NCBI GenBank assembly: GCA_965649765.1 | Contig: OZ287756.1 | Coordinates: forward strand, 1,178,001-1,242,000 | Direction of reading: 5' to 3' | DNA length: 64,000 nucleotides | Origin: Bispira polyomma | Taxonomy: Eukaryota | Shown: positions 26,182 to 61,099 of the stretch, one piece after another | Layout of the letters: the number at the start of each line of letters is the position of its first letter | Numbering within the stretch: position 1 is the first letter of the stretch | The notes under the pieces: generated by a model | Told to the model about the DNA's origin: nothing | What the model saw: the letters and a program-made list of their open reading frames with translations, nothing else | Databases searched by the model: none | Translations under genes and position numbers: made by a program

Positions 26182-26509
26182 TGGACAAGGGGCGACAGCA
26201 CTTGATGTCAGTCCAAAGTGGCTGGAAAATTTGAATTATTAAGCCTAGAGAACTCTGGACTCTTTTAGAGGACTCTGCAATTTATGCTTATTTTGGCTTG
26301 CAAAAGTCTATCTCTAGGGGACGTATAATCTTTCTTAATCCACGCACTGCGTGTTTAACTTGTCAGATTTCATTCTGCAAGTTTTAGTCTCTATTTTAAC
26401 ATACGTACCTAGATTTATAAGCATAACCTGCAGAATCCACATTTTATATTTTCCAGAGATCTCAGACATTGTTTAGACTATTTGTAGAAAGTGGATAATA
26501 AGCAAAACG

Positions 26510-27739
26510 ATGCCTAACAAAACAGCGTACTGTAAACAATGTGAAATTGTTCACCAACGACCTGTGGGACGTCAATGTGTGCTGAAAACACCTGTGGACA
26601 TCAATGGCCCGGCGACGAGAGGACGGCAGCGGGTGCAGATCCAGCAGGATGTGGATAAATCCTTGGCTAAAGGCAAGACTAAGAAGAAAGACTCTTTGTT
26701 ACACGAAGCCACGCAAGAGGATGCCGAAGAGGGACGGGAACAGAGTAGTACATTAAACATTATATTGGATAAACTGTTTAAGTTGGAAAGTGACATGAGT
26801 GAGGTGAGAAGGGGTCAAAGGACTGATCTGGTTATGTCAGAGGGGATATCACATAGTTCGCCAGCGCGTCGTAGCTACACAAGGGACACTTCTGAGGATA
26901 GTGAACGGGACTATGATTATAAGCCATGTGACAAGAGGCAGAGAAAACCCCAACCATGTTATGACCCCTCAACCACCAGACCAGCTGACGACACTGACTC
27001 TGACGACGACATCCTACCAAGTAAGGACTTCCTGAAGATGAATGAGCAGATCCAGGCTCAGGTGGACCAGAGGCTGAGGAGTCACAAAGCTAGGTACTAC
27101 AGCTCACCAGATCATGGCAAGAAGCTTAAGTCTGGGTTGCAAAGGACATCTGAGTATCATGTAAAACACATAATTAACTGGCCTCATGAGTTCTGCTACA
27201 ATGTAGCGGGTAAAAAACAGCCAGCCTACGATGAGTTGACCCCTTTAATGTGGTTCCAGGGCTATCTAGGTTGTGTGTATGAGGAAAAGAATGAGAAAAT
27301 TTGTGATAACATGTTAAGATATGGGATGCAATTAATGAGAGATGCATTAGAAACTTCTTGGTATACGCTGAAAAATGCTCACTGCCAAATCCTACTTGAA
27401 ATGGAAAAGGGCAAGGTCAGTTGGAAAAACTTAAGCAAGATACATGAGCTAAGGGCAAGATTGACCCAAAGTATACTTAAGGACAATAACCACCATGAGA
27501 ACTCTCAAAGTACCTCCAACCACTCAAAGAGTAAAACTAAGGGTAATGTTGTTATGTGTAGTGCCTACAGTAAGGGTACCTGTAGTCAAAGTGACAATCA
27601 TGTCTTTGGTAATTTGATACTCAAGCACGCCTGTGCAAAATGCTTCAGTAAGGACAAACAGATTCAGCTCCACAGGGAGACTCAGTGTGGGAAAACCAGC
27701 AGTTATACAAAAGAAACTTCCAAAGGTCCCCACCATTGA
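26510..27739 (+). CDS. Gag-like ORF1 of element 1 (409 aa)
   Basis: Intact ORF with N-terminal CxxC..H..C, GKKLKSG, WPHE and a C-terminal Cys/His finger (CSAYSKGTC..H..HACAKC..H..C); lies upstream of RT. Confidence 0.85.
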   Translation: MPNKTAYCKQCEIVHQRPVGRQCVLKTPVDINGPATRGRQRVQIQQDVDKSLAKGKTKKKDSLLHEATQEDAEEGREQSSTLNIILDKLFKLESDMSEVRRGQRTDLVMSEGISHSSPARRSYTRDTSEDSERDYDYKPCDKRQRKPQPCYDPSTTRPADDTDSDDDILPSKDFLKMNEQIQAQVDQRLRSHKARYYSSPDHGKKLKSGLQRTSEYHVKHIINWPHEFCYNVAGKKQPAYDELTPLMWFQGYLGCVYEEKNEKICDNMLRYGMQLMRDALETSWYTLKNAHCQILLEMEKGKVSWKNLSKIHELRARLTQSILKDNNHHENSQSTSNHSKSKTKGNVVMCSAYSKGTCSQSDNHVFGNLILKHACAKCFSKDKQIQLHRETQCGKTSSYTKETSKGPHH

Positions 27740-28494
27740 CAGCCAATAGTTTCAAGGGTCATTTGGAATAGTAGTTATAAATTGAGATTAGGTAATGTTG
27801 ATTGTGTAAATAAGGTACAGTTTAAGGAAGATTGTGTAGAGCACAAAAGTGCAGGTGTAAAGAATATTAAAGGTAGTGTAGAAAGTAGAAATGTTAATTC
27901 TGTGCTAGTGGCACAAAAACTGTGTACAAGTGTGTTAGTGAATGAAAATAGTGTAAATTCTGTGAATGGGAAGGTCGTGGCCCCAAAGGGTTTCCGTGAG
28001 CCAATTCAGAGAGAAGTGCAAAGCAAGTCCCCCCCCCCCTAGTAAAGGGGTGGGAAAAGCCAGTGTACAAAGTTGTTTACGGCGGGCTTCCCGCGAAATA
28101 TATATAGTACTAACCATGTAATGTGTAAAGATCAAGAAATTGCTAACAAAGTTGACAGGCGTGGTAGTAAACAAGTTGACACCACGGGCATACAAACAAA
28201 ACAGTGTGACACAAAGTTACAGAAAGGTGTGAAAGAACTAAAGTGTATAGAAACCCCCAGTGAGGGGGGGTATGGGGGGGTTTCCTCCTCCCTGCGTCCC
28301 TAACAATCAATTCAGGGCAAACCCCTTTGTCACACTCCAAAGGTGTTCAATCAATTGTGTGTCAGAAAACCAAACAATCAGGCCAAAGCCCCTAATGACA
28401 TTTCAATGTGTAAGGCAGTTGCCAAGGAAAACCCTTACAAAGAAAAGACAGAGTTAAAGGTCTTGGTGTCAAATCAAGTGAAAACTTTGGTTTC

Positions 28495-30020
28495 ATGTGT
28501 ATTTACAAAGCTGTGTCAAGAATTCCTGACGTCAAAAATAGGGTAAAGTTTAATTCACTAGAGCAGTGGGCGGTGACAGCTCATGAAAGAATTAGTGCAA
28601 TGGGGTGTCCCAATTACTTGGGGGCACGCATACATGTCCCTTCTGAATTGAACATGAGGGCCTGGCGCCAAGTGTTACAAGGGGATGGGGATACCCTTTT
28701 GCCTAAGTATCTGGAGTTTGGATTTCCACTTGACATAAAAACGGACAGCTTTGTTTTTAATAGTAAGGTAACCAATCATGACAGTGCATTGCAATTTCTT
28801 GAGAGTGTGGACAAGTACTTTGCCACAGAACGTCTTCACAAATCAATTGCAGGTCCCTTTAATGAAATTCCTTACAAACAATTACACTGTTCACCTGTTA
28901 TGACCAGACCTAAAGATGATAATACAAGGCGACTTATTGTTGATTTCCCCTGGCCCCATGATAAAACTTCTGTTAATAGTGTGGTCACTGAGGGTATTTA
29001 TGATGGGCAAGACTTTGTTCTCACTCTCTTGACAGTGGACACGTTAGTTGATCGAATCAATGAAATTGGTCCTACAGCTAAATTGTATAAGCTAGATCTC
29101 TCACGGGCATTCAGGAGCCTGTGCATTGATCCAAGTGATTATGAATATACAGGTTTGTGTTGGAGAGAAAAAACTTATATAGAATTGGCTGTAATGATGA
29201 GTTACAAGCACAAAACGACCGTATGTGAATGGATGACGGACAGTTTGCGTCGCATTATAAGTAGTAAGCAATACCATATTTGGAACTACATCGACGATCT
29301 GGTTGCCGTGGAAACAAATGATAAGGCAAAAGCTTCCTTTGACCAACTGTACAAATTGATTGAGTATTTATGTTTGCCCATCAATCTGAAAAAAGTTTTC
29401 CCCCCTGCAGAAGAAGTCGTCTGCATGGGTATATTGGTTAATGCCAGAAAGGGCACACTTAAAATACCGAAAGAACAACTCAATCAAATCAAAAATATTT
29501 GTAAGCATTGGAAAACAAAAAACAGCTGTAAAAGGAGAGAATTGCAATCAATTTTGGGCAAACTCCTCTATGTGCACAGATGTGTCGTTCCCGCTTGTTT
29601 GTTCCTCAACCGTATGCTTAAACTGCTGAGGGAGACGTACCCGCGTAAGCAAATTATTCTTACCAGGGAATTGAAGGCGGATCTAAATTGGTTTAATGAA
29701 TTCCTGGAAAACCTCAATGTTTTAATAACTCTAGAGTAAAGCTATGGTGTGACAATGGTGCAGTAGTAGCAGGGCTTAACTCCAGCCGTTTTCATGACCA
29801 GGGGCTAGGGGTAATGGCTAGGTCAATTTGGCTTGAGACTGCAAAACATAACATCAAATTGGACGTAGTCCATAAAGCTGGGGTTAAAAACACACAGGCT
29901 GACCATTTGTCTCGCATGCTAATACCAGGTTATAAAAACATGAAAGTGCAGGATGAGTTGGCCAAAAAGAAATGGTGGGTAGTTAGCCAGGGTGATTTTC
30001 TGTTGAATAATACAATTTAG
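28495..30020 (+). pseudogene. RT/RNase H of element 1 (internal RNase H deletion)
   Basis: LEFGFPL, SPVMTRPK, RRLIVD, KLDLSRAFR, NYIDD, LQSILGKL; resumes as CDNGAVV..NTQADHLSR. Frameshifted upstream linker at 27740-28495. Confidence 0.9.
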
Positions 30021-30032
30021 TTTCCTTTACAG

Positions 30033-30588
30033 GTTCAAGGCTCCAAAATTACATTACCAAGGCAGCCCACTATAGACTGGAATCTGCCTTCACTGTCAGG
30101 ACACAAAGACCTATACCAATTCTACTAGATTGTTCCTGACGTTTGCCATATTCCTGGGTGAGGCCCAAATAACCTCGCTCTGTTTTCTATTGCAATTCAT
30201 GGAGTATTTAGCTCAGCAGGGTTTAAAACCCCCCTCTATACAAAATTATCTCTCAGCTGTGAAATATCATTTCAATTTGTGTAGTTTCCCAGTAGCAAAT
30301 TTTTCTCACCCTCAAATAAGATTATTCTTCAAATCCTTCGCCATGTCTACCCCCTACTCTCCTAGACTAAAGGGTATAGTAACTCTTCCTATTCTCACTG
30401 CTATCATACATCAATCCTCCACATTCCTACATGCATATGTGTATAAAGCGTTGTTTCTCACTGCTTTTTTCGTTTTTTTTCCAATTGTCTAATCTAGTCC
30501 CCACTAGTATTACTCAATTTAATCCGGAGAGACACCGTATGTGTCAGGATTTTGTCTGGGGCTCACCTGGAGTGCATGTAGTACTCAG
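30033..30588 (+). pseudogene. Tyrosine recombinase of element 1, N-terminal part; C-terminus deleted
   Basis: Aligns with the YR of element 2 (RLESAF..T..Y, SIQNYLSAVK, YKALFLTAFF, LSNLVP); frameshifts; fused to repeat B1. Confidence 0.85.
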
Positions 30589-31536
30589 GAAATTGATTTA
30601 AGTTAAACTTAAACTGCTAGGGTGACCATAACTTAAGACAGTGGTCCCCCCTATTTGTGTGTGTAGAGTAGTAAATGTTTAACCACTAATACTTTAACAT
30701 TGCATGTTAGATTTAGACATTTTAATAAATGCCCAATGAATGCTACTTACTTGTGTTGTCAATATCGTGTTTGCCTATTTAATTTCCTGCCCTGCTCTGG
30801 GCCTAGCCCTGTGGACTGTTGGACAAGGGGTGACAGCACATGATGTCAGTCCAAAGTGGCTGGTACATTTGAATTATTAAGCCTACAGTGCCCCAGGGTA
30901 CCAAATATATGAATTAAGTTATATGGACATAACAATTGTGTAACACCATCAAAGACTTGCGGTTAAATTTATTTAGGTCTATGGTTTCTTATATATAGTT
31001 TCGCATAAGGAGGGGGGCGTAAGGTCACCTCCAAGTCTGCTAGCTTGAACGAAGGTGTGTAAGGTCACCCTAAACCAAAGAAGAATGAGGGTTCCATTTG
31101 GTCACCTTAACTTTAAGTTTAAGAATTACTAAAGGTGCCATGAGGTCACCTTAAATTAATTACTAAGAGTTGCGGTCAGACAACGCTGACCTTAAATTAG
31201 TTTGAATGTTGAAATAGAGGTCAGACAATGCTGACCTTAAGTTTTAGTTAGGTAGGTCTCCTGTAAGGTGACCCTACCTTGAGTTTGAGATAATTGTAGA
31301 TTTTGAGGGTATGCCACTTGAGTTTCAGAGGGCATACCATAAAGTATGTAATAAGTTCAAGCTAGACTAAGACTGTAAAAGAGTGCATTATGCACCCAGC
31401 AGTTAGGTTGACCTTATGCCCCCCGGGCAGTCATTGCTCTGCACTGTCCACATTTAGACTTTATTATGGATTAATATATTATATTTTATTATATTTACAG
31501 CTGAGACATAAAGAGCAGTCCACCAAACCCAAGACC

Positions 31537-32522
31537 CTAGGAGTAGTGCTGAAGGGCCGACCTGAAGGAGTCCGCAACCTGAGAGCCAGCCTGAGCCGAA
31601 TCAGTTATATACCTCCACACACAATCCGACGTCCAGGTGCCATGTCGTTGAATGTCCTGTATGTTGACACTATTGTTAAAGGCAAACGTGGCACCTGAAC
31701 GTCAGAAAGCATGGAAAGTAAGACTGGTCTGCCGGAAACCTACAAGCCGCAAGACATTCTTCAGGTGACGCCTTACACGGGTGTCAATCAACGCCTCCCA
31801 GGAACTGCCACGCTTATACTGAAACAGGGGCATGTTGTTACCAGGGGGAGTTAGGGCTAAGACATTCCTCAGGGCAGCTACAGGGCACAGGCTGGAAGAT
31901 GGAATGGCTGGGATAGTCAATAGTTTAATGGCATTGTTTGTCTGCATGGTCTTAGACCACTTAATTAACAAAGTAACATAACCAGGTTTAAAAATTACAT
32001 CACCTCTAGCTAAATGCTTTAAAGGAGAAAAAGTCGCCACAGAGTGGGGGCATAAATTCGACAGTCTAAGAAAACTGAAAAAACTGATCAAGTACACTGC
32101 CTTGAAGATCTGACCCATATATGTGCTATCACACTTAGCCACAAGGGCCGTGAGCAACGGGACATCAAATAAACTTCTGAGCTTAGCTTGTAGCGGTTTG
32201 CTCAAGGCCAGAGCCCTGTTAAAATAGGAGACTCTAGGGTCTGCAAAACACTCTACATTAATATTGTACAGAATACATTTAGCTTTCACTGCTGACAGGT
32301 GGTTAGCAATCTGCGAGGCCGACATAGAATTATAGTTCAGGAACTCCAGGAAACATAGCAATTTAAACACAGTCACCTGAGAAGGGAGCCAATCCATGAA
32401 AGCTCCAAAAGCAACAAACAGCCTGAACATGTTATCATAAGCCCTGGCAGTTGAGGCAGCAAACGCAAAATGCAGCCGTTTGCAAGCCCGACCCGTCAGC
32501 AGTGATTCCACTGGATGCATAC
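31537..32522 (-). pseudogene. Tyrosine recombinase of element 2 with one premature stop
   Basis: FLRLSN (R), KWSKT (K), FHAF*RSGAT (HxxR with TGA at 31702-31704); the frame continues through HGTWTSDCVWRY (catalytic Y) to TAG at 31537. Confidence 0.93.
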
Positions 32523-32556
32523 CTGGAATCACACAAATATAGACATGTAATTAGTA

Positions 32557-35500
32557 TTATATTGTGGTATCAACTTGCAGCAGGGTGGCATCTGCTCGTA
32601 ACCATTTAACTGGGCCTGCCAATTCTGCCAATAGTTGCTCATTGTTGGTGGTTTTATGCCAACGTGACAACAAATCTGCAATTTTGTTTTTTACACCCAT
32701 AATATGAATAACCCTGATTTCGATGTCAAATCTGCTGGCCCACATGTAAATATTACGGGTATAACAGGCCAAAACTGGATCCTGTGTCCGACCACTTCCC
32801 AAGACACTGACTACCGCCTGGTTGTCACACTTAAACAACACTTTTTTACCTTGCCAAACACTGGACCACAATTTGAGGGCTACAAGGATGTTAATCATCT
32901 ATAGTTCAGCAATATTATCCTGAGTCATATTCTGGGGAATATCTAGTTTATACACTTCATTCCCACAGATGCCCCCCATGCCAGTTAGACAGGCATCTAG
33001 TTCAACCTGAGCATGTACGGGTGTATGCAAGAAAAAACTCACCCTGTTATACTGTTTAACAAATTTTGTGAACCAATTAAGGTCCTGCTTAAACTCACTA
33101 GTGACATGAAAGGTTACTTTGCCATTGTTATCACGTAGTAATTGTAACATTCTGTTGAGAAATACTCTAGCATACTTGATGCATTTAGCTATATATAAGA
33201 GTGAACCTAGTAATGACTGCATGTTACATATGAGGACATTGTAGTATGTTAAGGCACTCTGCTGGAGTGATCTATTTATAGATTTGGGGAAACCCCTAGG
33301 CTTCTAGAAACCGGTTCTATTTTGTTTCTGAAGGTTATTGAAGTTGTATTCATGTGTGTATCTCATCTCTGGAATGTCCTAGCGATTGCTTACATATTCT
33401 AGAGCCTTCTCTAGCAGTTGTATATATAAGGGTTGACAGCCTTGCCACAGACCAGAGAGTAATTGAGCAGAGGTGCTATATGAATTGCTATATGAACTGC
33501 TATACATTTCTTTGTGGATATAAACTGATTACTACATATGTTTTTATGGTGAACTCATTGGAGTGAACTAGACAAAAGTTGTGAATCTACCAGAGATTGG
33601 ATTAATTGCATATTGGATATTGTTTGCATCCTGGACTGGATAGCTTAGTTGTGCAGATTCTCTGGATATATACATTTTGTGTTCGTGGACACTGAACAGA
33701 TAACAGGATACAGGCATTGTGTGGACATTGAGCGGATCTCAAGACAGATTGCTGGATACAGTGGACAAACTTGTTTTATTGTTACTTATGTCGACAGGAC
33801 TGTGGTCAGGTCAGATTGGTTTTTTGATTATTGTATTATTGTGTGAACTATTAAGGGTATCTCAGTTGACTGTAATTCTGTAATTGTTATTTTATTGGTT
33901 AAATAAATTTGTTAAGTGAAATTTTTTGTCTTTTCCTGTTACAACCTCAAAGCAACCGGTAATTGCTACCGCGCTTGCTCCCGTGACCGTAACACTGCAA
34001 TTCTTTCTTAGTACAGTGAGTTTTGTCTTGCCAGGAAACACATTTTTCTCTGATTTCACCCAATTTTTCATCAGGTATTGAGTTAGTAAATTTCTCAGTG
34101 TCAATAAGGATGCCCAGACACACTACTTGTGTGCTGGGAGCCACCAATTTTTTACTGCTAACGGTGAGACCGAGTTCTTGCAGTAACGTCTGTAACCGGT
34201 TATAGCTAGAGAAAATTTTACTGGGCAAATTAACCGCAAGAAAATCATCAATGTAAAAATTGTGGATATTATAGCCCTCTGATCTCATAATGAACCTAAC
34301 TGCGTCAGAAATTCTTTGAAAAATCGTTGATCCATTCTGGTAGCCGAAAGGTAGGCACTTATCTACATAAAAACCCTTCCATTTTAAACCAAGCAGATTA
34401 ATGTCACCGGGGTCAATAGGGACGTGCCGGAATGCCCGACTTATGTGTACCTTATAGATATGGCAGCCTCTGCCCAACTTAGTGACCTCACTGGTAATGT
34501 TATCAATGGAAGGATACGAGAGGAGAAATTCTGTATTTAAGTAAGAAGTGGGAGAAACCCCCGCATTAACAGATTGGCCATGTGGCCAACTCAAGTCAAC
34601 TATTACACGCCTATTGGCCGAGCTCGATTTATTCCGAGTCATCATTGGCGAGCAATGTAAGTTTTTGATAGGGGGGTATTAAAAGGCCCTAAAATGGCCC
34701 CAAATTGACATTCTTCATTTAGATACATTTGGACATGCTCAGGAAAACAATTAGCTGAACTGTGGTTAGCATTCTGTGACTGACTTATGTTATCGCAACA
34801 CACATCCAAAGGGAAGCCATATTTTACCAATAAGGGAAGCTGCCAGTCCCAGTACTGGTGGAGATATTTTCCCCACTTATCAGCATTCAATTGTGACTCG
34901 ACAGCCAACTGAAGTCCCTGAAAGTTATGTCTACCATCTTTCCGTAGTTTGTTGTGCATTTCGAAAACGCTAAGTTCATGGTTATTACCCACATCCCAGA
35001 TTTTGCACCCAAGTGTGGACAAAGGTGCAAAGCCATATTCAACTGCAGTTTGAGTTTTCCATTGAATGTGTGTAGCGTCTGAGCGAGCCTTAACTAACAA
35101 CTCTCGTTTGTTGCGTTTTTGCTTCAACTCAAGGGAATACTTGTCCCCACAGTCCTTCGTGACACTCACCCGAGTTACATTATTTACATTCGCTTTATCC
35201 GACGTAGAGCCAACCTTGGCTTTTTGCTTATTTACAATATTAACACTGTTTGTTTCCCCTTTTCCCTCCCCATTGCTGCCGGGTTCAACAATGGTTTGGC
35301 TGAGGGGAAGAAATCTGTTGTGTGATACAAGTTCACCCCCCACCTCTAGTGTGGGTTTATATTGGGAGACCCTTTTATTCACACCAGTATGGGGGGCCCT
35401 TCGTCTCGACTCACTACATTCATCTTTGTTCCGCGTGGCCGAGACAAAGGGGGCGACCCCATCCATCCGAGCGTTCACACCCTTAGTGCCTTCAATGCTG

Positions 35501-35814
35501 ATATTTTTACATTTTTTGATACTCTTAATTGGTTTGAACTTCAATACATTTTTGACAAATTTTGTAGTGCATTGAGGAACCTTGGTGTTACTTTCTGCGA
35601 CGTGTTTAGCAATATTGTCATTGTAAAACATTTTACTTCCTGCCGAAACCGCATTACTGTATGTACAGCAAGCCTTTGTGCCCCTATTATACATGAGCAT
35701 TCTATTTACAACAGGTTTACCAAACAAATGCTGTTCCTGAAATTTGGAATTATAAATAACTCTGTCCGAATATTTCTTACCCACTGCGTTGACGCCGTGG
35801 GCCCTTAGTTTTTT
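32557..35814 (-). pseudogene. RT/RNase H of element 2, interrupted by a solo LTR
   Basis: KYGFPL, RRVIVDLSWP, LPFG, YIDDF, LDACLTGMGG, IAEL*MINI, CDNQAVV, NKIADLLSR; frameshift near 34645. Confidence 0.92.
33222..33994 (+). mobile_element. Solo LTR (copy 2) inserted in the RT of element 2
   Basis: TGTTAC...GTAACA termini, 5-bp duplication CTGCA (33217-33221, 33995-33999), TATA-like tatatataag at 33421 and AATAAA at about 33902. Confidence 0.9.
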
Positions 35815-36082
35815 AAACCTTTTTGGTACATGTACTGTTCTTATGGTTACCCCCGCAGGTCTCACACACGTGTTTGAAAAACGTGTTTCCTGTCTTATGA
35901 CTAGTAGGGAACTTGCATGATCCATCCTGAAAGAATTTACAATTTGCATTTTGCTTGGCAAAGCCACTACCTTTACTAGTACCACGGCCACTACTGGTAT
36001 GAACCACACTATTATTTGACACGTGCCTCTGTGCATGGGCCCTTCTCAAACGGTCTAATTTTTCCACGTCGTACCACGAAAG
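35813..36082 (-). pseudogene. Gag C-terminus (Cys/His finger) of element 2
   Basis: LRRAHAQRH..CKFFQDGSC..H..HVCETCGGNH..C; homologous to the gag of element 1 and of fragment 3. Confidence 0.85.
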
Positions 36083-37351
36083 CCTTATAAACCCCCATTT
36101 TTCACTCTAGGGCCAGCAATGGACTGTCCCTCGTTGAGTCAAAGTGTCAGAAAAAGGGCGCCAAAAGTCCCAGTGGGGCCCCACTCCTCAGTTGTTAAAA
36201 GGTGTTTGCTGGAGAAGGAGCTTTTAGAACCCACCCTCCTCTCCCTTCATGTATCATAGTTTCAACATCCTTAAAACATGTGTGTATTGTATATTACGCG
36301 TATCTCAAGTATGTACTTTTGTGTATATTTTTGAGTGAAATATGGCCGAAGAATGACCAAAGAGAGAGAGACTGATGCTACTAGCAACAACAACTGGGTC
36401 GTGTGTGTCACTCCTGGAGTGTGTAGCGTCAAAAAACCTGGAACGTTCATACATAAAGCATGTGTAAAACATGAAACAAGGGTAATTGACATTGGCAGTT
36501 GTCTTACAAAGATTAAATGTCATGTGTATGTTGGTTAGCTATTTATGTTAGGTTTAAAGGTTTAAATAGTATGAAGTCTTTGAAGTAGATTTGACAGAAG
36601 AATATGTAATGGTTTTAAATGTTTTAGTTTATATATGAAACTCCTCCAGTAACAAATGTAATAGAACACTTGCAACTAATATAATTAGCTTTGCTCTTGT
36701 TTTAAATGATTTACATGCTAGTTGTATGTTATTCTCTCTCTCTTATACAAGTAGTTTTTAAAATTTTTATGTGGTAATTTTTACTGTTATTGATTGTTTT
36801 AATTTTTCTTAGTATATGGTGTTATTGATAATTAAGGTCATAGTTATGAGTATAATGGCATTGTGCTACTTATATGTTATATTATAGTTATGAATATATA
36901 TTAGATATTTAAAGTTATAGTATAAACTCTAACTGTAAATTACGGTAACCTTATGTTCTATCTTTAAGGTAACCTTAACATTAATTTAAACTGAGGTGTT
37001 TAATCTGTAACTAAGGTGGCCTTAAGTCACCTCACCTCTAGTAATTAAGTTTAACTTAAGTTTGAACTTAACATAAGTGTAATTAAAGTTTAAACTAAGG
37101 TGACCAATTTTTGAAATTGATTTAAGTTAAACTTAAACTGTTAGGGTGACCATAACTTAAGACAGTGTTCCCCCATATTTATGTGTGTGGAGTAGTAAAT
37201 GTGTAACCACTAACACTTTAACATTGCATGTTAGATTTAGACATTTTAATAAATGCCCAATGAATGCCACTTACTGGTGCTGTCAATATTGTGTTTGCCT
37301 ATTTCGTTTCCTGCCCTGCTCTGGGCCTGGCCCTGTGGACTTGGCGGGGGC

Positions 37352-37620
37352 ATTTAGTTAACAATTGAGATGATTTTGATTCTCAAAGATACCATTTAAT
37401 AATGATAGTTTAACTGACCCAGAGTATGTAAAGATGAGAAAAGATCTAAAAAATGAATTAAAATTAAAGTACACATTGTCAATAAAAATACTCTATGGGA
37501 CTATGTAAAGTGATATTACAAGTCACCATATGTGCTATGCAAGTACAAGGGCAAAGCAAAACAGAAAACATTAACAAGATTTAGTCGTAAAAATAAATGA
37601 ACTGGAACAGAATAACAATA
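37352..37620 (+). mobile_element. L1/Tx1 ORF2 linker remnant, continuing at about 39280-39620
   Basis: Degenerate FNN.SLTDPEYVK and LWDYVK; later RSKAK.ME..EK.TK, in the order expected downstream of the endonuclease at 26000-26181. Confidence 0.55.
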
Positions 37621-39260
37621 GTTACTTCGTCTTAACGTTACTTCTAGCTTACCGAATTTTAATACAATACACAACACAAAATTTATTAAAATCTTGTTTA
37701 TGTCACATTTTATGCATTAACATTACTGTATATCCTTCTTCCAATTTTACCCGATTTAGTCTCTTTTTTGTGTTTTATATATGTACATTTAAGTAATTTG
37801 CCTATTATCGTCCATTCCGTTTTGGCTGGAGTGGTTCGTACAGCATAGCGCTGTGTACCACATGTTAGGCACTGTGTATTAGGTGTTTACATTTCCTGGT
37901 AGTATTTGCTGGTATCGCTTGCAGACACAGTAAATATTTTTGTCAATTTTGTTGTTTTTCTTTCTGAGTGGGAGTGGGTCGTACAGCATATTTAGCATTG
38001 TGTACCGTATATTTGGCACTGTGTCTTGGGTTGTGTTTTATACTCCTAAATATTTTGTTCAATTCTGTACCTTCTCGATCTCTCCACAGCTTTTTATACC
38101 ATCGACCATGGCTTACTCTTTGACACCCTAAAACAGTAATTTGGTGTTGATAGTACTGTTCCTGACTGGATTAAATCATATCTTGCTCTCAGAACCCAAA
38201 AAATCAAATTGGGTGACCACTTTTCATTGTCTTTTAATCTACCTTTTGGAGTATCCCAGGGGTCAGTTCTCGGCCCTCTACTTTTTACCCTCTACACTCA
38301 TTGTCTCAGTGCAGTCATCAATAATCACAATGTTAAACATTACATGTGTGCTGATGACACTCAAATCTATCTCTCTCTTAACCCCCATAATGCCGGAAAC
38401 AACCTGGATTTACTTGCCAACTATCTCTCCTCAGTTCAGGCGTGGATGAACTACTCTAAACTGAAATTAAACCCAGATACAACTGAATTCATCCTAATTG
38501 GCAACAACAAACACAGTGAATACTTAAGATCACTTTTCCCAATCACACTGCTAGGAAATGAGATTCAACCTTCAGACCAGGTCAAGAACCTAGGTGTCAC
38601 TATCGACCCTGCTTGTTACTATCACATTCGGGACCACAAAAGAATCAGAAATTATCTGTCACTAGATAGTGCTATAACTGTGGGCAACACTCTTGTAAGT
38701 AGCCGCCTTGACTACTGTAATTCTCTTTTATATGGAACTAATAAGTCTCACATAAACAAGTTGCCGTCCATTCAAAACTATCTATATGGAGTCCTTTTTT
38801 TAGGTATATGTAATGATGTAACTCCATACCTCAAGCAACATCATTGGCTTCCAATTCATTATCGAATGCTGTTTAAAATGCACTAAACCACCTTTAAAGC
38901 TCTCAACAGGCTCACTACCTCGCTACTAAACTCTCCTTCAGAAGCCTTTAAAGGGGAAAGAGACTCAGTTTCCTCTAAAAAACCACCAATAGACTTGGAT
39001 CTAGAACCTTCTCAGTCACCGCCCCCTATGTTATGGAACAGTCTTCCAGTTGAGCTTAAACTGCTTGAAACACTTTCTGGATTTTGGAGAAAGCTTAAAA
39101 CCTATCTCTTCAGGCTCACCTATCTGCCATAGTCGTCTCTCTAGGTGCTGAAACATCCATCCTTACAACCTGGCTATGTTTTTTATTTTTCTATTGGCTG
39201 ATTGATTCTGATGTTGTGCCTTAGGAGATGCGCAATAAGAATTTACAATACAATACATTT
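37620..39260 (+). mobile_element. L2/CR1-type LINE: 5' region joined to RT C-terminus, internally deleted
   Basis: GVSQGSVLGPLLF, CADDTQIY, KLKLNPD, SRLDYCNS, HWLPI; (TACAA)n tail near 39244-39256; 37820-38030 resembles 44560-44610. Confidence 0.85.
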
Positions 39261-40107
39261 TTATACAATAATTTTTCAGTGTAAGTATTCAAAAATTAAA
39301 TTAGGAAAAAACATAATGTGATCAAGTTAAGATCAAAGGCCAAACGGATGGAAGATTAAGAAAAAATCACAAAATGCATTAGAAAATTAATAAAGAAAAC
39401 AAATTTACGTCTCAGGAAAAAGTAAATTGAGGAAGAGGTACTTTTTTTACAAAAATCTATACACAACAAAAAGTGTCCATACTTCAGAGTTGCAGAAAAC
39501 AATCCTCAATAACATTCTGTGAAGATATAAACATTGTTAATGCAAAATTTAAAAAAAGATAAACTTAACTTACCTTATATATCATGGATATTTAAAATTT
39601 TAACTAGAAGTGCCTTGAATTTGTTAAAGAAATACAAAGTTAAGTCATATGATGTACAAGTCTGTCATCAGCTTTATTTCATGAACAGTGTATATGGCAA
39701 CACCCCGGTGTTGGTGTATTCAGTTCTGGGTACCAGTCTTTTCTTTGTCACAGTCAATTGTGTTGTACTATATAAAGCTTTGTATTTCAAACTTCCCGCC
39801 CTTTCAGAAGTTGTCTACAGAAGCAGCAACTTCAAAATATTAGGCGGGGATTTTAACAAAGAGTTTTTGTGTTTACAGTTTGTTTTAACTGTTCTTAGTC
39901 TTTTTAATTAATTCACTCTTTGAAAAAATGCCACACATAAGGGAATATAGTGGCACAAAGTGCACGGGTAAACATGCCAGGCTGGTTGGCAGTAAAAATA
40001 GTGTAAGAATGTTCAGCTTGAAGAGTCCGTGGTTGAGGTATATGTGTCTAATGACAACTTGTGTGAAGCAGTCAGTTCGCCGCTCCTGATGGCTTGGCCA
40101 CGGAAAC

Positions 40108-40930
40108 ACTAGTATAAAGAGTCAGGTCGAGCAAAGGCTTGTTCAGTTAAAAGAGCTTTATGAAAACCCTACTACAGGTAAGAGTAAGTCACAAAGGGGA
40201 GGGGGTGTCGATGTGTCAGTGAAACGGGTAGTTGAATGGCCTCAGAACCACTTCCTGTCAGAAATTTCATAACTAGGCCTAGTTATGATGACTTGTCTCT
40301 AAACCAGTGGGTATGCAGATTTACCTGCATTATTCAAGACGAAAAATCCCCGGAAACCAAAGAAATAATTTCAGACTACATGGTTGGTCTTATGGAAGAC
40401 TCCCAGGATTATACTTAGAAAGCTGTCGTGCCTTAGAAAGCTGTCGGTTTTGACTACCACGTAAATTGATCAACTTAAATGGAGGAAGGTTGCTGAGTTA
40501 GATCACCTTAGGCGGGCTCATGCACAAAGGCATGTAAACAGTAGTAACAGTAGTAGTAGTTTTCAAAGGGGGCCACCATGGTTAATGAGGGCTCGGCTAA
40601 CTGTAGATTTTTCAGGGGGGCACATGTAAATTCCCCAACAGTCACAAGACTGGAAATACGTTTATTAAACATGTATGTGAAAGTTGTGCTGGGGCTCACA
40701 AAAAGTAGTAATTGTAGCAAAAAATTGGCAAAAACCTGAGGGGCCACTGCATGGTGCAGTGGCCAACAGCAGAGTTTATAGTAGGGAGTTTTAAAGGACA
40801 GACTTTCAGGCATTTCAATTGTTGGACAAGCAGAGGTAAACAACCTAAATTTAGTTCTAGTAATGTGGTCAAACAACCTGGTCAAAGCAGCAAAGTTTAA
40901 CACTCCAAGTGTGAAAACAAACAATTATAT
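40108..40930 (+). mobile_element. Decayed gag fragment of a third DIRS-order element, same family as element 2
   Basis: QVEQRL..GKSKSQRGG..WPQNH..RPSYDDLSLNQWV..LMEDSQD; LRRAHAQRH; CKFPNSHKTGNTFIKHVCESC. Confidence 0.85.
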
Positions 40931-42706: not shown

Positions 42707-43917
42707 TTAGCCATCATGAGTGACCCTGTCTATTATTGCACACTGTTGTACCGTGGTATGGTTTACCAGACCCTCACACATCCTGCTATTTCCCAAAACC
42801 TGGTAGACACCGGCTAGTTCTCGGAGTATCCCAGTCACAAACACAGACTCTAAATGTACAAATTTGTTCTCATACCTATCGCAGGCATCCAGGATTTTAC
42901 TTGCTGCCCCAGCATTCATAACATAGCTGGGTCCATGAACATGTGTTGGAAACACTTTACCTGGAAATACATTTTCTGGAACAAACATCTGCTGGTTACA
43001 TTTCAACCGTACAGGGCGTGACTCACGAACAACACGTCCCATCACAAAATCATCTGGTGGTGTCTCTGACAACATGTCTATCAGTAGTGGTAGGTTTAAG
43101 TGGCTTTTGTCCGATATTTTGACTACATAGTTAGTACCTCTATAAATGTTAAGGAAGGTCTTCAGCATCCACAAGGATTTATTAGTCTGATTATAGAAGG
43201 AGTTAATAAAGTCCCCTTGTAGGATGTCTCTGTACTTCTGGCTTTCTCTAATTATCGACTCATGTATGATGCCATCACTGGCAGTACCAAGAAAGAAGGC
43301 AGTCTTCACATCTGCTTTTCTGTGTCTACCTGGGAAACATAATATAATGTCTCTGGAAATACATTTGCAGCATATATTGACAGGTACTTCACTTGTGGAG
43401 AAAATCAAAGCAAGGTCTACTTTGTCGGGTATGCTCCCTAACATATCTTTGTTCACCTAATGAAACACTATACTAGTTGATACATAGGTCAAAGTTAAAA
43501 ATAACTAGTCTCCCAATTGAGCTTAGATCACTTGAAACCCGTTCAGGGTCTAAGAAAAAGATTAAAACAAATTCCTCCTCCCCCAGCATCTTCGGCTAAT
43601 GGTAGAACTCTATGTCTTCATCTAGTATATTAGTCACTATATACACCCACTGAGTGATAAACTGAATCAAGGTGTTACTACTACTCACCCATTGAAGTAT
43701 TCCATTTGCTTCGGGATCTCCCATTTTTCCAAGAGCTACGTATTTTCTCACGAGCCTCAAAGTTATTTGGCTCAGACACAACAGCCACCAATACGGACAA
43801 GCCACTGCTCTGTTGGATGCTCCTGCTGTTTAAAACTATACTTAAAATCCAGAAATTGACAACAATAAAAGCTATTATCATTAGAGTCTGTATCAGCTTA
43901 CATATCTGAAACCTCAT
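42707..43917 (-). CDS. GT31 beta-1,3-galactosyltransferase-like protein, paralogue 3 (exons 43917-43689, 43329-42707; about 283 aa)
   Basis: TM helix; REKIRSSW, ESQKYRDILQGDF, FPTHVHGPSYVM, LESVFVTG; same phase-1 intron after WNT.. as the other paralogues. The DxD position reads KISDK. Confidence 0.88.
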
Positions 43918-44539: not shown

Positions 44540-47500
44540 ACCCTATTATCGACTACTCCATTTGGCGGGAGTGGGCCGTACCGCATATTTGGCACTGTAT
44601 ACTGCATATTTCGAGCTTGTTTTGCTATATTTTATATCTTATTTAATTAAAAATCCTTTTCTATCGATTTTTCCTTGACTTAGTCTCATTTTATGTTGTT
44701 TTTGGTTGTGAGGTTGTACTTAGCTTAAGGTCAGGCTGTAGTGTGGGGTGTTAGGGTGTCCGTAAGTCACCCATGGGACGAAGAATTGTATAGTGAGTGG
44801 TAGGGACATATTTGTTGAGGCTCCCTACTGTTGAGTTTAGTTTAAGGCTTTTCCTTTTGTACAACCTCACCAGTCATGTTTCTCCTTAGGGTTCTCCTTT
44901 TTTCGGCACTGTTTGCTGTGGCACTAGTGCACCCTTGAGTAGATCACATATCTACTACTCCACTGTCTAAAGTCGGAAAGAATTTTCTCATACACTTGTT
45001 CATGTCATAAATGCTCAACTTCTGTTAATGGAAGAGGTCTAGTGTTGTTACTCTTATTGGTCGGTGATGTATTCCTTAACCCTGGTCCTGTCATGCTGGG
45101 TGTGCTAAATGCTAGATCTGTATAGAACAAAGGTCCACTTCTTGCTGATATTTTGACATTGTATGGCCTCGACTTCCTCTGTGTTACCCATGTCCGTCTA
45201 TCTGATACGGATAGCGTTCTACGGTCTGTTACTCTTCCTGATATTGTGTTTTCTCAAACGCCTCATCTTTTATGTATTGGTGGCAGTGTCGGTTTCTTCA
45301 TCAGTTCCTCCTTTAGACAATACAAAATAGAGTCTTCTTCTGTGCATCAGTCCTTTGAAAACATAATGGTGTCAATTGGGCTTCATGGCCACTCACTGTT
45401 GCTTGCCTGCGTCTATTGCCCCCCAGGATCATGTACCTGTAATTTTTTAGAAGAATTCATGTCTTTTTTTGGTTTCCTGTCATCTATTAACAGTTCGTAT
45501 CATATCTGTGGTGACTTTAACATCCATGTTGATGCACCAGTTGGTGAGGGTCATAAATGTATGACCTTTCATGATTCGTGTGATCTAAAACAGTCAGTTA
45601 CACAACCTACCCATCTGCATTTTAACATTCTGGACCTCATTCTATCTCCTATTGATCAGGATACTATTGTGATTTTATATCTGATCATGCATTAGTAAAA
45701 TGCTCAATTGCCTCTCTTTGGATTTGAATTTGAATTTGGATATTTAACGTCTACTCTGGTACATGACTTGGGTGATGTTCTCGATAAGCATGCACCACTT
45801 GTATCTAGAATGTCAAAGAAAGATTCTGTGCATTGGCTTTGTGATTCATACCGACAGGCAAAGTCTCTCAGGCGCCAATATGAAAGAACTTGGTGAATTT
45901 GAATTTGAATTTTGATATTTAACATCCACTGTAGTACCTTTAAGTAGGTTATAGTGGGACGGGTAGTTGAAAACGCTGGAGGAAACACTGCATACAGTCG
46001 GTCAAGGTTCTGCAGAGAAACCAGCGGCCCACAGTAAGGAACTACCACCTTTCCCACATAGGCATCGAACTCACGCCGCCCAGAGGTGAGAGACCAGTGA
46101 TTGTAAAGGAAAGAACTTGGTGAAGGGCCAAGACTCCACTGAATAGAAGTCGACTTCGTCGCCATATTGCTCGGTGCAATGTACTTGCTGACGAGGATAA
46201 GTCGGAGTATTATGGCAAACTTATCTCAGACAACAGTCATAACTCCAGAAAGCTATGGCACGAGCTGCGCAAGACCCTAAATATGGTTTCCAATGTGGCA
46301 TACCATCCCATGAATCTGATAAGTCATTAGCTGACAAGTTTGCTTCCTATTTTTCAAACAAAATTAAGAAAATTACAGATACTTTTGTTCTTTCTGGAAT
46401 TAAAAATGATGTTTATCCTCTTTCTGATCCACCTGAAAATTCTGCCTCTAAAGATGCTGTTAATAAAATAATTAGTAACTCACCTACGAAATCCTGCATG
46501 TTGGATCCATGGCCAACATCTCTCAGCAAAGAATGTAGTGATATACTTCTATCCATTACAAAGCTTATAAATTGCTTATTGAGGGACATGTACTTGACGG
46601 TTTTAAAAAAGCTGGGGTTACTCCTTTTATTAAGAAGGCTTCTCTTCCGATTGATGACCTACAAAACTATTGCCCTGTATCTGGTCTTAGTTTTATATCA
46701 AAACTGGTTGAACGTGTGGTTGCTAAGCAACTGTTAGATCATATCCTTGTCCGCGACTTAGACAACCCACATCAGTCTGCATGCAAAACAGGTCATTCGA
46801 CTGAGACAGCTCTTCTGTCCATAAAAAAATGAAGTTCACCTATCTTTGTCAAGAGGCGAACCTACTGCCCTAGTGTTGCTCGACCTTTCTGCTGATTTTG
46901 ACACCATTGATCATTCCACTTTTCTCAGTTGTCTTCAGACTTGGTTTGGAGTTGGGGGCTGTGTTCTTAAATGGTTCACTTCCTACTTAACTGATCGTTA
47001 TCAGTCGATAAAAATTGGTTCTACTTTGTCAGATCTTTGTAAACTCTTGTTTGATGTTCCCCAAGGTTCTGTTTTGGGCTCTCTGTTGTTTTCGTTGTAC
47101 ACTGCGCCCTCTAGATTGGTGATTGGCAATCTTTGGCTCAAAACGACAGAGGGAGAAGTTGGAAGCATGTTTTTCAGTTGACATCCTAGGTGGCCCTTTC
47201 AGCCCAGCTGATTCTGTCAAGAACCTGGGTGTATGGTTCGACTCTGACTATTCCTTTTCTAAACACGTTCAGAGTGTCTGCAAAAGCTGTTTTGTGAACC
47301 TCCGGGACTTTAGACATGTCAGGTGGTTTCTCACTTATGATGCTTCTATACTTGTAGCCAATGCTTTTGTCAGTAGTAGATTGGATTACTGCAATTCACT
47401 TTTCAGGAGTCTCTCAAAGTTTAATTTACGCAAATTACAATGCATTCAAAATAGTGCAGCTAGAATTGTTTCAAACACCAGTCGATACACCAATATAACT

Positions 47501-47995
47501 CCTGTTCTTAAGAAATTGCATTGGCTCCCTGTTGAACAGCGTTCAGTGTTTAAAACAGCTACACTTGTTTATAAGTTTCTTCACATTGGTTTTCCAAAGT
47601 ATTTTGCACCATATCTTTACTGTTACAGTAGTTCTTATAATACCAGGTGCAGTCACAGTGGTAGTAATTTCCTTGTAGTTCCAAAGTTTCACCCGTCTAC
47701 TCAAAAGTCAGTTAACAGTTTGGTCACAGCTTTACTTATGATGCTCCCATTGTTTGGAATGCTCTTTCTGATGTGATTCGTGTGCCACTAGCCTCTTGTA
47801 GAAAGTAGCTTAAAACCCAATTGTACACCAAAGCATACCCACTTTAGTCTCAATCCTCCCCCGGAATGCTCTGTGGTGCTTGATCCTTTTTTTGTCCCTG
47901 GATATTGAAATTGGATTACTATCTTTTATGCTATTATGCCTTAGAGTCCCCTTCATTAATGGGAGATTAAGCGCTATGAAAGTCTAATTACAATT
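44540..47995 (+). mobile_element. Near full-length decayed L2/CR1-type LINE ORF2 (endonuclease plus RT) with N-terminal 2A-like motif
   Basis: GDVFLNPGP, LNARS, VYCPP, GDFNIH, LDLI, LDPWP, HSTETALL, LDLSADFDTIDH, VPQGSVLG, SRLDYCNS, LHWLPV. Many stops and frameshifts; the YADD segment is deleted. Confidence 0.92.
45898..46108 (-). mobile_element. 5'-truncated SINE with a 16-bp target-site duplication, inside the LINE
   Basis: gaaagaacttggtgaa at 45882-45897 and 46109-46124; minus-strand B box gagttcgatgcc and (ATTCAA)n tail. Confidence 0.85.
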
Positions 47996-57899: not shown

Positions 57900-58800
57900 T
57901 GATTTAACAAAAGCATGCACAAGTGGAATACCTCCCACCTCTCTTTAATAAACGTCTTTATTGACCTCCGAACTTTGTTTTGTCAGGAAGTCAAAATGTT
58001 TGGCTGTCATATAACGACCTGTCACTGTTTAAATTTATTGCTGGTTTTATAAGGTGTGTTCAGAAACAAAAACCCACTGACGTTTGTGAGTCTATACTGG
58101 ATGCTGACGATTTTCCTGGGATGCTGCAAATGCATGTTATACCATACTCTTATTGTAGCAATCGGCGCCAGATTCCCAGGATAGACTGTACACCTCATGG
58201 CTCTCCGAGTTTTAGTACCCTTAGGTTTTCCGGTTCACCGCAAGGTTACAGAGATTTTTCTAAGAATAGGAGTGAGGCTGAGTAAGCAAGTTTGAAAGTA
58301 ACCGCAGGGATCCGCCGGAAAGTATGGGTAGATAGCTTTGGTAATTGATGAATGAGAAACCCTCTTTCATCCAGAGATACTCAACTCACAGATTAACCAA
58401 TAGGGTAGTTTGTAACTGTTTTTGGTGGGATGATCTAGGGGGACTTTTGGATGCCTCATTGTAGATTTTTGGTGCGTGGATTTTGGTGGGACAGGACATA
58501 GTGTCAATAATAGGTATGAATTTTTACATATCTTAATATGTGAGTTCTTATCAGGTTTGATGGGGATAGTTGGGTGCCGTCGGATAGTAGGTAATCATCT
58601 CATCATTATTCTAGATTTATTATAACAAAATCATGTAAACTTGTAGGCTCTAAAATTATTATTTTGAACTTTAGGTTTTGTAAGAGAGGTATCAAGTTCT
58701 CAGGTAAAAGGCCCTTATTTGTGATCTTGACCTCCATTGGCTAATTCCATTCATCCTGGACCTACATGTCTGGAAAATGTATTTTTAACTTCATTTATTA
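57900..58800 (-). mobile_element. Possible highly decayed Penelope-like element (linker plus GIY-YIG)
   Basis: Broken-frame peptides ITYYPTAPN, PPK..PKNL, IQY..TKRQ..SEH, AKHF occur in the expected order. Confidence 0.3.
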
Positions 58801-61099
58801 TCATACTTGATATAAAATACTTTTTTTCTATGCTGGTCAGTTTCCCTGTTTAGACCATGGGAGTGTCTTGAGTGCAGATGGGCAGGATTGGTATTTTTAT
58901 TTATTCATTCAGGCGACTGAACACCTGTTGGGTAGCAACTTCCGGGGGATAGGTGCATGGAAATGTGGCTGGGGAGTATACCTAGACAGTCACAGGGCTA
59001 GGGTAGTTCATCCAGGGTAGCCCCTGCTTGTGGGCAGTTTCTGAGAGGGCTCTAAGGTGGGTAGCCAGGAATGAACCCTGCACCTATTTAAAAGTTATTC
59101 ATTATCCATTAATTTAACATTCATTTCATGGAGTTGTTTCCTTCCTTTTTCCTGTCTAAATCCACGGGTTGGGATATAGTGCTAATGGCAGGTACCCTTG
59201 GGTTGGGACAGTCGGGTAGATTTCGGCCGGCTGTATCTCAGCTTTGGCCAGGATTCAGTTTCCTGTGGCCTCCTCACTGTAACCACTCTGGGTGATACTA
59301 TTACCGATAGCACTAAGGGTGGTATTATGGGTTGGGAAATGGTTATGGTAATGGTAGGGATTTATTGTTGGGATATTAGTGTATTAAGTGGTGTAGATTT
59401 GTATATTGTAATATGTTAATCATACACATATGTAATGGTTACGCATCTAGGTGTGTATGATCATTTAAAGATAAATATTTTAATAACCTTATTAGTTAAT
59501 TTGGTCAATACTAAAAAGTTAGTAAACCTGACACGGAGTTTCTGACACGGAGTTTCTATTTTGATTTAAATGTTATTATAAATTATTGAATTACCTGGAA
59601 TACCTGGATAAATTGTTGTGGATTATCACAGTACCTTTTAATTTTGTGTTGACTATATTTTGTGGATTATATGTGTTATCTTTACAAATGTTCCTATATG
59701 AAAATATATTCCCCTGTAAATTTTAACCAGGAAGCTGTGTGGATGTGTTTCAGACCACACTTCAAGACTAGTAGTATCAGGGCAGACCAAGTACAGGCTT
59801 GGCTCTCTCTCCACATTATTGCAAGTAAAATAGGGTTGTATCACAAAGTATCATCTTTGATTATTCTCATTATTAATATACACGTATATATATTTATATA
59901 TATAACCTATGATAAATTTTCTGGATTGGTTATTAATTATAAATTTAACTTGTTACTACTTAATTGGGGAACTCATCTTGCAAATTCAATGTTTGTTTGT
60001 TTGAATTATTCACTAGATTGTTATTTTTATTTATCATCCGTTTGGGACTGTTCTATTATAATAAATAATAACCTGACACATATTTTGCAATCTTTCTGTT
60101 TTATCGTAATCATACATAAGTGAAATACCTTAATATAATTTCAAATGCTTTTAATAATGTTCTTTCTCGCATTACTTTTTGTGGTTGTTGTTATTAATCC
60201 TATACTTTTTGCTTTTATCACTGGATTTCTTTATTTCTTGAATTTTCTTTGATATTAAATTCTGGCACCTTTGGTTGCATTTACTAAATTTACTCACCCT
60301 TACATGATTTATGTATATGTGGTTTGTCTAAATCTATGTAACATTAACCAACCTTGTAGTTAGACAGGCTTACATGGACTGATGTGGATTACATTGACAG
60401 AATATGACTAGCACACACCCAACGTCACATTTTCCCTCAGTTTATGGTAATAATGTCAATAGTCCAAACATCAGCTTTTAGACTGGCAGTAAAAGTGAAG
60501 ATTGTTCAAAACTCAGGGTAAAGTACCAGATGTTATATGTAGGTAATTTCCAAAAAGTATTTGTAAATTTAATGGCAGTCATAGAACTGACGACCAGATA
60601 TTTAAACATATCTGTGAGATTTGTGATGGTTCACAAGTGTGACAGCAAAAAGGCTACAAAAACTGAATGCTCACTGCAGGCATGCTGTGCAACTTTTCCA
60701 GAGTTGGAGCAATAGTAAATATTTAATGGTAAATAATACTGGACAGCAAGTCTATCAAAGCAGTACTAATCGTCTAAATTGTTTTATCAATTCTGTATTT
60801 AGTAGTGACAAATGATTGGGCCAAAAACAATTTATCTAACCAGTCATTGAGGATTAGATTCTTGCATTTTTAAATAAATCTATGTTACTTGTTTTTTTTA
60901 TATAAATAATATGACAATACTCTTGCCTAAACATACTTCCACTATGATAACGGAAGTATTACAGTCTGTAGACAAGCAGAATTGTAACTATTTTAATTAC
61001 ACAAAATTATGTATACTTAGCAAGAGTGATGATTTAGCAGAATTGGTGTCATAAATTGTTTTCCTCGATAAAAATACATAAAAAATGTAACTACAATTC

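Follow-up and report, generated by a model that had tools for sequence, protein, structure and literature searches.

Conserved phase-1 acceptor-like sites before the tyrosine recombinase suggest a spliced Gag-recombinase fusion in Ngaro-type retrotransposons from Bispira polyomma

A 64,000-nucleotide (nt) stretch of the Bispira polyomma genome (contig OZ287756.1 of assembly GCA_965649765.1, positions 1,178,001 to 1,242,000; here referred to as the window, with coordinates counted from its first letter) contains three decayed pieces of Ngaro-type tyrosine recombinase (YR) retrotransposons at 26.2-40.8 kb, element 1 (E1, plus strand), element 2 (E2, minus strand) and fragment 3 (F3, plus strand). 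In these elements and their relatives, the YR gene has the properties of a 3′ exon whose splice acceptor is conserved and in phase 1, and a phase-1 donor-like site recurs in the middle of gag. Active copies probably make a spliced fusion of the N-terminal part of Gag with the recombinase (GagN-YR). Use of the pre-YR acceptor in intact elements appears highly likely, and the mid-gag site is quite likely to be the donor for it. In the proposed scheme the mid-gag donor would be spliced onto the pre-YR acceptor, joining the first 150-230 residues of Gag to the recombinase, and one transcript would give three products, Gag and Gag-Pol from unspliced RNA and GagN-YR from spliced RNA. The intron in E1 would be 27117-30032 (2916 nt).

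The splice-like sites that a sequence-only reading had reported for E1, E2 and F3 are all present, and all are in phase 1. The RNase H (RH) stop of E1 (TAG, 30018-30020) is followed by a T-rich YAG acceptor-like stretch of 12 nt, TTTCCTTTACAG (30021..30032; score 10.2, median of the relatives 9.6), after which the YR exon starts at 30033 in phase 1, in the frame reading SRLQNYITKAAHYRLESAF and offset by 2 from the RH frame. In E2, the RH stop (TAA, 32559-32557) is followed by 34 nt (32523..32556) that open with the branch-point-like heptamer TACTAAT and end in the phase-1 acceptor-like site GTGTGATTCCAG, with the AG at 32524-32523, the exon beginning at 32522 and an ATG at 32520 directly after the first GT. 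Within the window alone these sites are weak evidence, since each strand averages 4 acceptor-like YAGs with a score of at least 8 per kb, and branch-point-like heptamers number 1.7 per kb; the case rests on relatives.

We analyzed E2 together with 33 of 39 metagenome loci that share 26-38% identity with the E2 YR, six having no YR 5′ end. For each of them, a script blind to phase searched the 69 nt around the position projected as the YR start and kept the best T-rich YAG. Its choice was in phase 1 in 30 of 34 cases, or 28 of 32 when two intron-less loci are excluded, which corresponds to a binomial probability of 3e-9 for non-independent loci; grouping 27 of these by amino-acid identity leaves 21 clusters at 70% and 13 at 60%. 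The 5804 control windows were about evenly divided, with 1835, 1776 and 1463 in phases 1, 2 and 0 and 730 without a YAG, and 31% reached a score of 8. Inspection of the four misses recovered a phase-1 YAG at the expected place in three; L039 is frameshifted. The translated acceptor, [LIVSPTA][GADEV], was also found among the closest YR proteins, in 22 of the 24 with a long enough N-terminus (50% under the null), 16 times exactly at position -16, and called YR starts are spread over the 1-34 residues before the first conserved helix in those rows that extend to the helix (60 of 121). Conservation of the acceptor across related elements, which the sequence-only reading had proposed as a check, is seen in these blind picks.

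The best sign of acceptor use is the junction in two relatives, L034 and L036 (metagenome contigs from two assemblies), where an open frame led by an ATG runs into YR exactly at the acceptor AG. From the acceptor G onward L036 is 96% identical to L037, which carries RNase H and CTTTGTTTTGCAG upstream. The first exon of L036, of low complexity and ending in phase 1, is 139 codons long from its ATG and is preceded by an ORF for a GDSL hydrolase. This GDSL/SGNH ORF occupies 928-1533 of the locus, and a short, unspliced GT-AG stretch of about 50 nt (1822-1872) is located just before the ATG of the fused ORF. The first exon was not placed by ESM Atlas, phmmer or Pfam, and exact look-up returned a one-member cluster on three contigs with no name. 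It probably came from another element, as it matches neither any gag compared nor that of L025, whose YR is nearest to the L036 YR among the full relatives. The joined form is possibly a cDNA copy, because the RT of DIRS-1 acts in trans according to the available portion of PMC7192593. The reading of YR as a 3′ exon behind a phase-1 acceptor has strong support in the conserved phase, and in one intron-less form the joint falls precisely on the AG.

Evidence for the donor comes from mid-gag. The E1 site CATG/GCAAGA (ATG/GCAAGA at 27114..27122 on the plus strand, cut 27116/27117) is in phase 1 at gag codon 203 and is placed as the G-K/N/T of relatives; it is donor-like, weak, and may be a decayed GT donor or a GC donor. 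The F3 site ACAG/GTAAGA (CAG/GTAAGA at 40175..40183 on the plus strand, cut 40177/40178) is in phase 1 and matches the donor consensus at 8 of 9 positions. The sequence-only reading had set the donor in a conserved G-K-x-K-S motif; the phase-1 sites are where it placed them, but the motif is not a fixed one, as E1 reads G-K-K-L-K-S-G and F3 G-K-S-K-S-Q, with the glycine floating relative to the conserved KS. Among 150 gag relatives, 79 have a KSG..WP anchor and 76 of these enough sequence before it. Within the 16 residues before KSG, x-G-[KNRTE] is found in 51 of these 76 gags (23 of the 25 closest) and in 52 of 525 upstream windows. In DNA, a phase-1 G/GT[AG][ACG] lies between -25 and +5 codons of the KSG/SSKG anchor in 9 of 10 gags compared with 18 of 101 other windows, and the F3 site is a further one beyond these ten. 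The codon-usage check suggested by the sequence-only reading also came out in favor of a donor in a small sample, with AAA GGT ACG identical in three of three divergent SSKGT-type gags and the KSG glycine elsewhere taking all four codons. The distance from the donor glycine to KSG varies among gags, as would be expected for an RNA signal inside a flexible linker. Position 27118 is not among the 40 variants listed for contigs from three runs (at most two samples of one study) that were compared with 26300-36400 at 80% likeness.

The splice as a whole has a mid-gag phase-1 donor backed by protein and DNA conservation, but no record of that donor joined to YR, and a number of observations weigh against the fusion. 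E1, with GC only, is the one miss of the GT donor test; the window and pattern of the DNA test were picked after inspection of the data, and the protein count is inflated in distant families by Lys-rich linkers. A joint from the gag donor to YR is absent among the 15 of 166 contig joints listed. No GagN-YR protein was found among the 150 gag matches, nor in two weak searches for longer proteins. Each of these had two matches, which were gene models of RT/RH-YR or of a whole element, apart from one unrelated model, and the second search spanned 607-2000 amino acids (aa), above the expected fusion size of 475-575 aa. At the joined loci, the L036 first exon matches no gag and its unspliced donor was not seen, the junction comes from a dead copy since L036 and L037 share an inactivating YR stop and frameshifts, and the L034 and L036 records may be either DNA or RNA. 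Finally, a methionine directly follows the acceptor in two of 34 loci, E2 and L013.

An alternative that we regard as unlikely keeps the splice at the pre-YR acceptor and moves the donor, either into pol or into a brief coding leader close to the 5′ repeat, an exon that gag or pol would share. An acceptor-like site in E1 at 26440-26456, 53 nt before the gag ATG, would suit a leader, as would the first exon of L036, which was not recognised as gag. However, 6 of 10 elements have acceptor-like sites in the 150 nt that precede the gag ATG, in mixed phases, the E1 site is followed by an in-frame stop ahead of the ATG, and a donor in leader or pol leaves the conserved mid-gag phase-1 GT site unexplained. 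A conserved acceptor before gag was rejected as a candidate, with neither its phase nor its presence kept in relatives.

It is considerably less probable that YR is made unfused, from its own ATG on a subgenomic RNA or one with a non-coding leader, or by reinitiation, readthrough or frameshifting after RNase H. This would fit the ATG right after the AG in E2 and L013, an in-frame ATG shortly upstream in 5 of 14 loci, the E2 YR lying in the RH frame, and the treatment of YR as a separate ORF in the available text of PMC3783388 and PMC8547959. Against it, the first methionine of the remaining loci is 16-108 codons in or absent, often past the conserved first helix, and in E1, as the sequence-only reading had noted, there is no ATG at the homologous start, the first one standing 41 codons into its second YR frame. 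The RH and YR frames also differ by 0, 1 and 2 in 5, 3 and 6 of 14 loci, with gaps of 15-334 nt, and a non-coding leader would not hold the phase at 1. YR is without a conserved ATG and without a fixed frame relative to RH; neither initiation at YR itself nor readthrough or frameshifting out of pol can hold in general, and the independent YR start that might have overturned the fusion is not conserved. Hardly credible at all is a chance origin of the sites, in spacers rich in AT and linkers rich in Gly-Lys, which the abundance of acceptor-like YAGs in the window and in the controls would allow, but which predicts no phase bias and would hardly set the L034/L036 junction on an AG.

The part of Gag that a GagN-YR fusion would keep can be read from the E1 protein, which comprises an N-terminal CxxC-H-C knuckle, a low-complexity linker, a helix (172-197), the KSG..WP motif, a helical core (225-331) and C-terminal Cys/His clusters. 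The donor is in a loop between the conserved helix and the conserved core in a Gag model with a pLDDT (predicted local distance difference test) of 75, so that splicing would divide the protein along a domain boundary. Of 98 aligned gags, a good many of which are incomplete, 40 have the knuckle. GagN would retain the knuckle and helix 172-197 and lose the core and the C-terminal clusters (zinc fingers). With these lost, the core being the most conserved part of Gag, the fusion is unlikely to be a capsid subunit; carriage of the recombinase into particles, as the sequence-only reading had imagined, is only a guess. As a guess, GagN might instead supply a start codon and a handle tying YR to Gag or nucleic acid. 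Comparison of the Gag model with capsid folds gave no Foldseek match and a best VIA Z of 5.2, and complex prediction of Gag 165-335 with Gag 165-202 scored 0.00.

For Gag-Pol, the sequence-only reading had assumed one frameshift signal throughout, which is not supported. E2 and F3 have a slippery site with a hairpin, but in E1 and in 6 of 9 relatives (L003, L004, L007, L010, L024 and L025) pol continues the reading frame of gag after one TGA. The next base is C in 5 of the 7 relatives that have a TGA, and E1 reads TGA CAG CCA (27737..27745), which fits known contexts of stop-codon readthrough. E1-type elements would likely make Gag-Pol by readthrough of the TGA and not by frameshifting. No structured readthrough signal was found after the E1 TGA (z -0.41). 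In E2/F3-type elements, the A-rich slippery run and hairpin at the gag-pol junction of E2 (35770..35830, minus strand, z -3.27) and at the end of the F3 gag (z -2.86) fit a -1 frameshift. L027 also has a frameshift-like gag-pol, and both modes occur within one group.

Assignment of E1, E2 and F3 to Ngaro is based on structural features, which are the gene order, the repeats and a space behind RH too small for a methyltransferase. Ngaro elements (order DIRS) are defined by the order gag, RT-RH, YR and by split direct repeats in the portions of PMC4157794, PMC3783388 and PMC8547959 available, the first of which cautions that structural features are homoplasious. The order gag-like ORF1, RT-RNase H, YR was found here. 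The 12 nt (E1) and 34 nt (E2) between RH stop and YR leave no space for the methyltransferase that follows RNase H in PAT-like elements, and no methyltransferase Pfam match was obtained among 18 window ORFs. The split direct repeats A1-ORFs-B1-A2-B2 are recognizable in E1 with B2 displaced, are laid out cleanly in the relative L024, and are not recoverable for E2 and F3; none of the six inverted repeats of the window is a terminal pair of the kind that DIRS1-like elements have along with an internal complementary region.

E1 (plus strand) begins with repeat A1 (26182..26250, 93% identity to 30820-30888), followed by an open gag of 409 aa (26510..27739; 1097 relatives at E<=0.001, no Pfam match) and by pol (27740..30020; variable region, RT and RNase H, with stops and frameshifts, delimited by tblastn with intact relatives and by translation). 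Its YR exon (30033..30588; tblastn, PF13495 E 2.9e-5) is frameshifted and ends at about residue 200 where B1 starts, before the catalytic residues. Repeat searches place B1 at 30589..30817 (94% identity to 37113-37341), the adjoining A2 at 30820..30888, and B2 at 37113..37341. E2 lies in the roughly 6.2 kb that separate B2 from A2, a position that suggests a nested insertion.

E2 (minus strand) has lost its 5′ end. What remains is the C-terminal part of gag (35812..36091, gag profile iE 1e-18), the 5′ part with the donor being gone, a pol (32557..35810; RVT_1 E 4e-11, RVT_3 E 3e-5) disrupted by an insertion as well as by one stop and one frameshift, and a full-length YR exon (31537..32522) with 58-59% identity to P0003/P0004 over 322-326 aa. 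Tyrosine recombinases have the catalytic set R...H-x-x-R...H/W...Y. The E2 exon has FLR, HAF(stop)R, HGTW and VWRY, its one internal stop falling inside H-x-x-R, and is recognizable as a tyrosine recombinase; PF00589 was matched in the YR of relatives. H-x-x-R and Tyr are also given in the available text of PMC8547959. The insertion in pol (33216..33993, 778 nt) is a very high-copy element whose ends overlap by 6 letters and which has a second copy at 6582-7341; contigs of all three runs join 33215 to 33994, and it is absent from other copies of the E2 family. F3 (40100..40765, plus strand) is a broken gag fragment identified by the gag profile. It was rejected as the inverted 5′ end of E2, with the gag C-terminus present in both and 65% identical over 252 nt; the two are separate copies on opposite strands.

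Many diverged contig pieces cover E1 and E2 throughout, so other copies of both families exist. Contigs in all three runs also join 30885 to 36092, skipping E2, as would an empty site or a related copy free of E2. In L037, a stretch of roughly 1.15 kb (2130-3294) that includes a (TAA)n tract lies between B1-like and A2-like repeats, as E2 does between E1 A2 and B2, and repeat junctions seem to be favored by insertions. No relatives were found in the viral contig collection or the genome contig collection. Elsewhere in the window, whose DNA is AT-rich, there are more decayed gag pieces of the same group (57941-58117 and 60363-60633), LINE-like RT and endonuclease fragments (38140-38886 and 45126-47776), and two galactosyltransferase ORFs of the host (PF01762; 24978-25676 plus, 42707-43456 minus) that face each other across the element cluster.

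Retroviral and errantiviral env and foamy-virus pol are made from spliced subgenomic mRNAs whose first exon adds no or few codons. The proposed splice resembles these in reaching a 3′ gene by removing pol from genomic RNA, but about half of Gag would stay and the spliced gene would be the integrating enzyme. To our knowledge, and in the literature searched, how the last ORF of YR retrotransposons is translated and how the recombinase meets the cDNA are open questions. The elements share with Ngaro the gene order, the repeats and the lack of methyltransferase room, and one related locus (L036) has the GDSL/SGNH hydrolase; in the available text of PMC4157794, PMC3783388 and PMC8547959, however, the Ngaro YR has an ORF to itself, either in the RT-RH frame or out of it, with no splice named, and the YR found here has instead the properties of a 3′ exon in phase 1 that lacks a conserved start. 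The shGAG RNA of plant Ty1/Copia (PMC5580714, as far as its available text goes) is likewise a case of a retroelement that uses a conserved splice to set how much structural protein is made relative to catalytic protein, but it makes Gag alone with early termination, and integrase remains in the polyprotein. ALOG-bearing DIRS1-like retroposons (PMC3537659, available text) are YR retroelements whose recombinase has an N-terminal zinc-binding part; there a methylase is present and the zinc ribbon is in the YR gene, whereas here the knuckle would come from gag by splicing. No spliced gag-YR mRNA was found in the literature searched, which lay outside the main reviews, the Goodwin and Poulter papers, Repbase reports and supplements; none is described in the available portions of PMC7192593, PMC9341512, PMC8547959, PMC6681497, PMC4495291, PMC3783388, PMC3537659, PMC4157794, PMC5633606 and PMC5580714.

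A conserved splice reduces the question to one junction, which allows a precise and cheap test, and would provide gene annotators with a rule across thousands of copies. If GagN-YR is made, the annotated YR ORFs of these elements are fragments lacking their true N-terminal third, and the protein to express for study or use of these recombinases changes. Strong splice sites in a common mobile element can also capture neighboring transcripts, as L036 suggests. More broadly, we lean, by a modest measure, toward the view that a wide Ngaro-type group in marine invertebrates makes YR only as a spliced GagN fusion, in which the shared phase 1 would make YR exons interchangeable between families, as in the L036 chimera, and the knuckle and helix of the Gag half would deliver or aim the recombinase.

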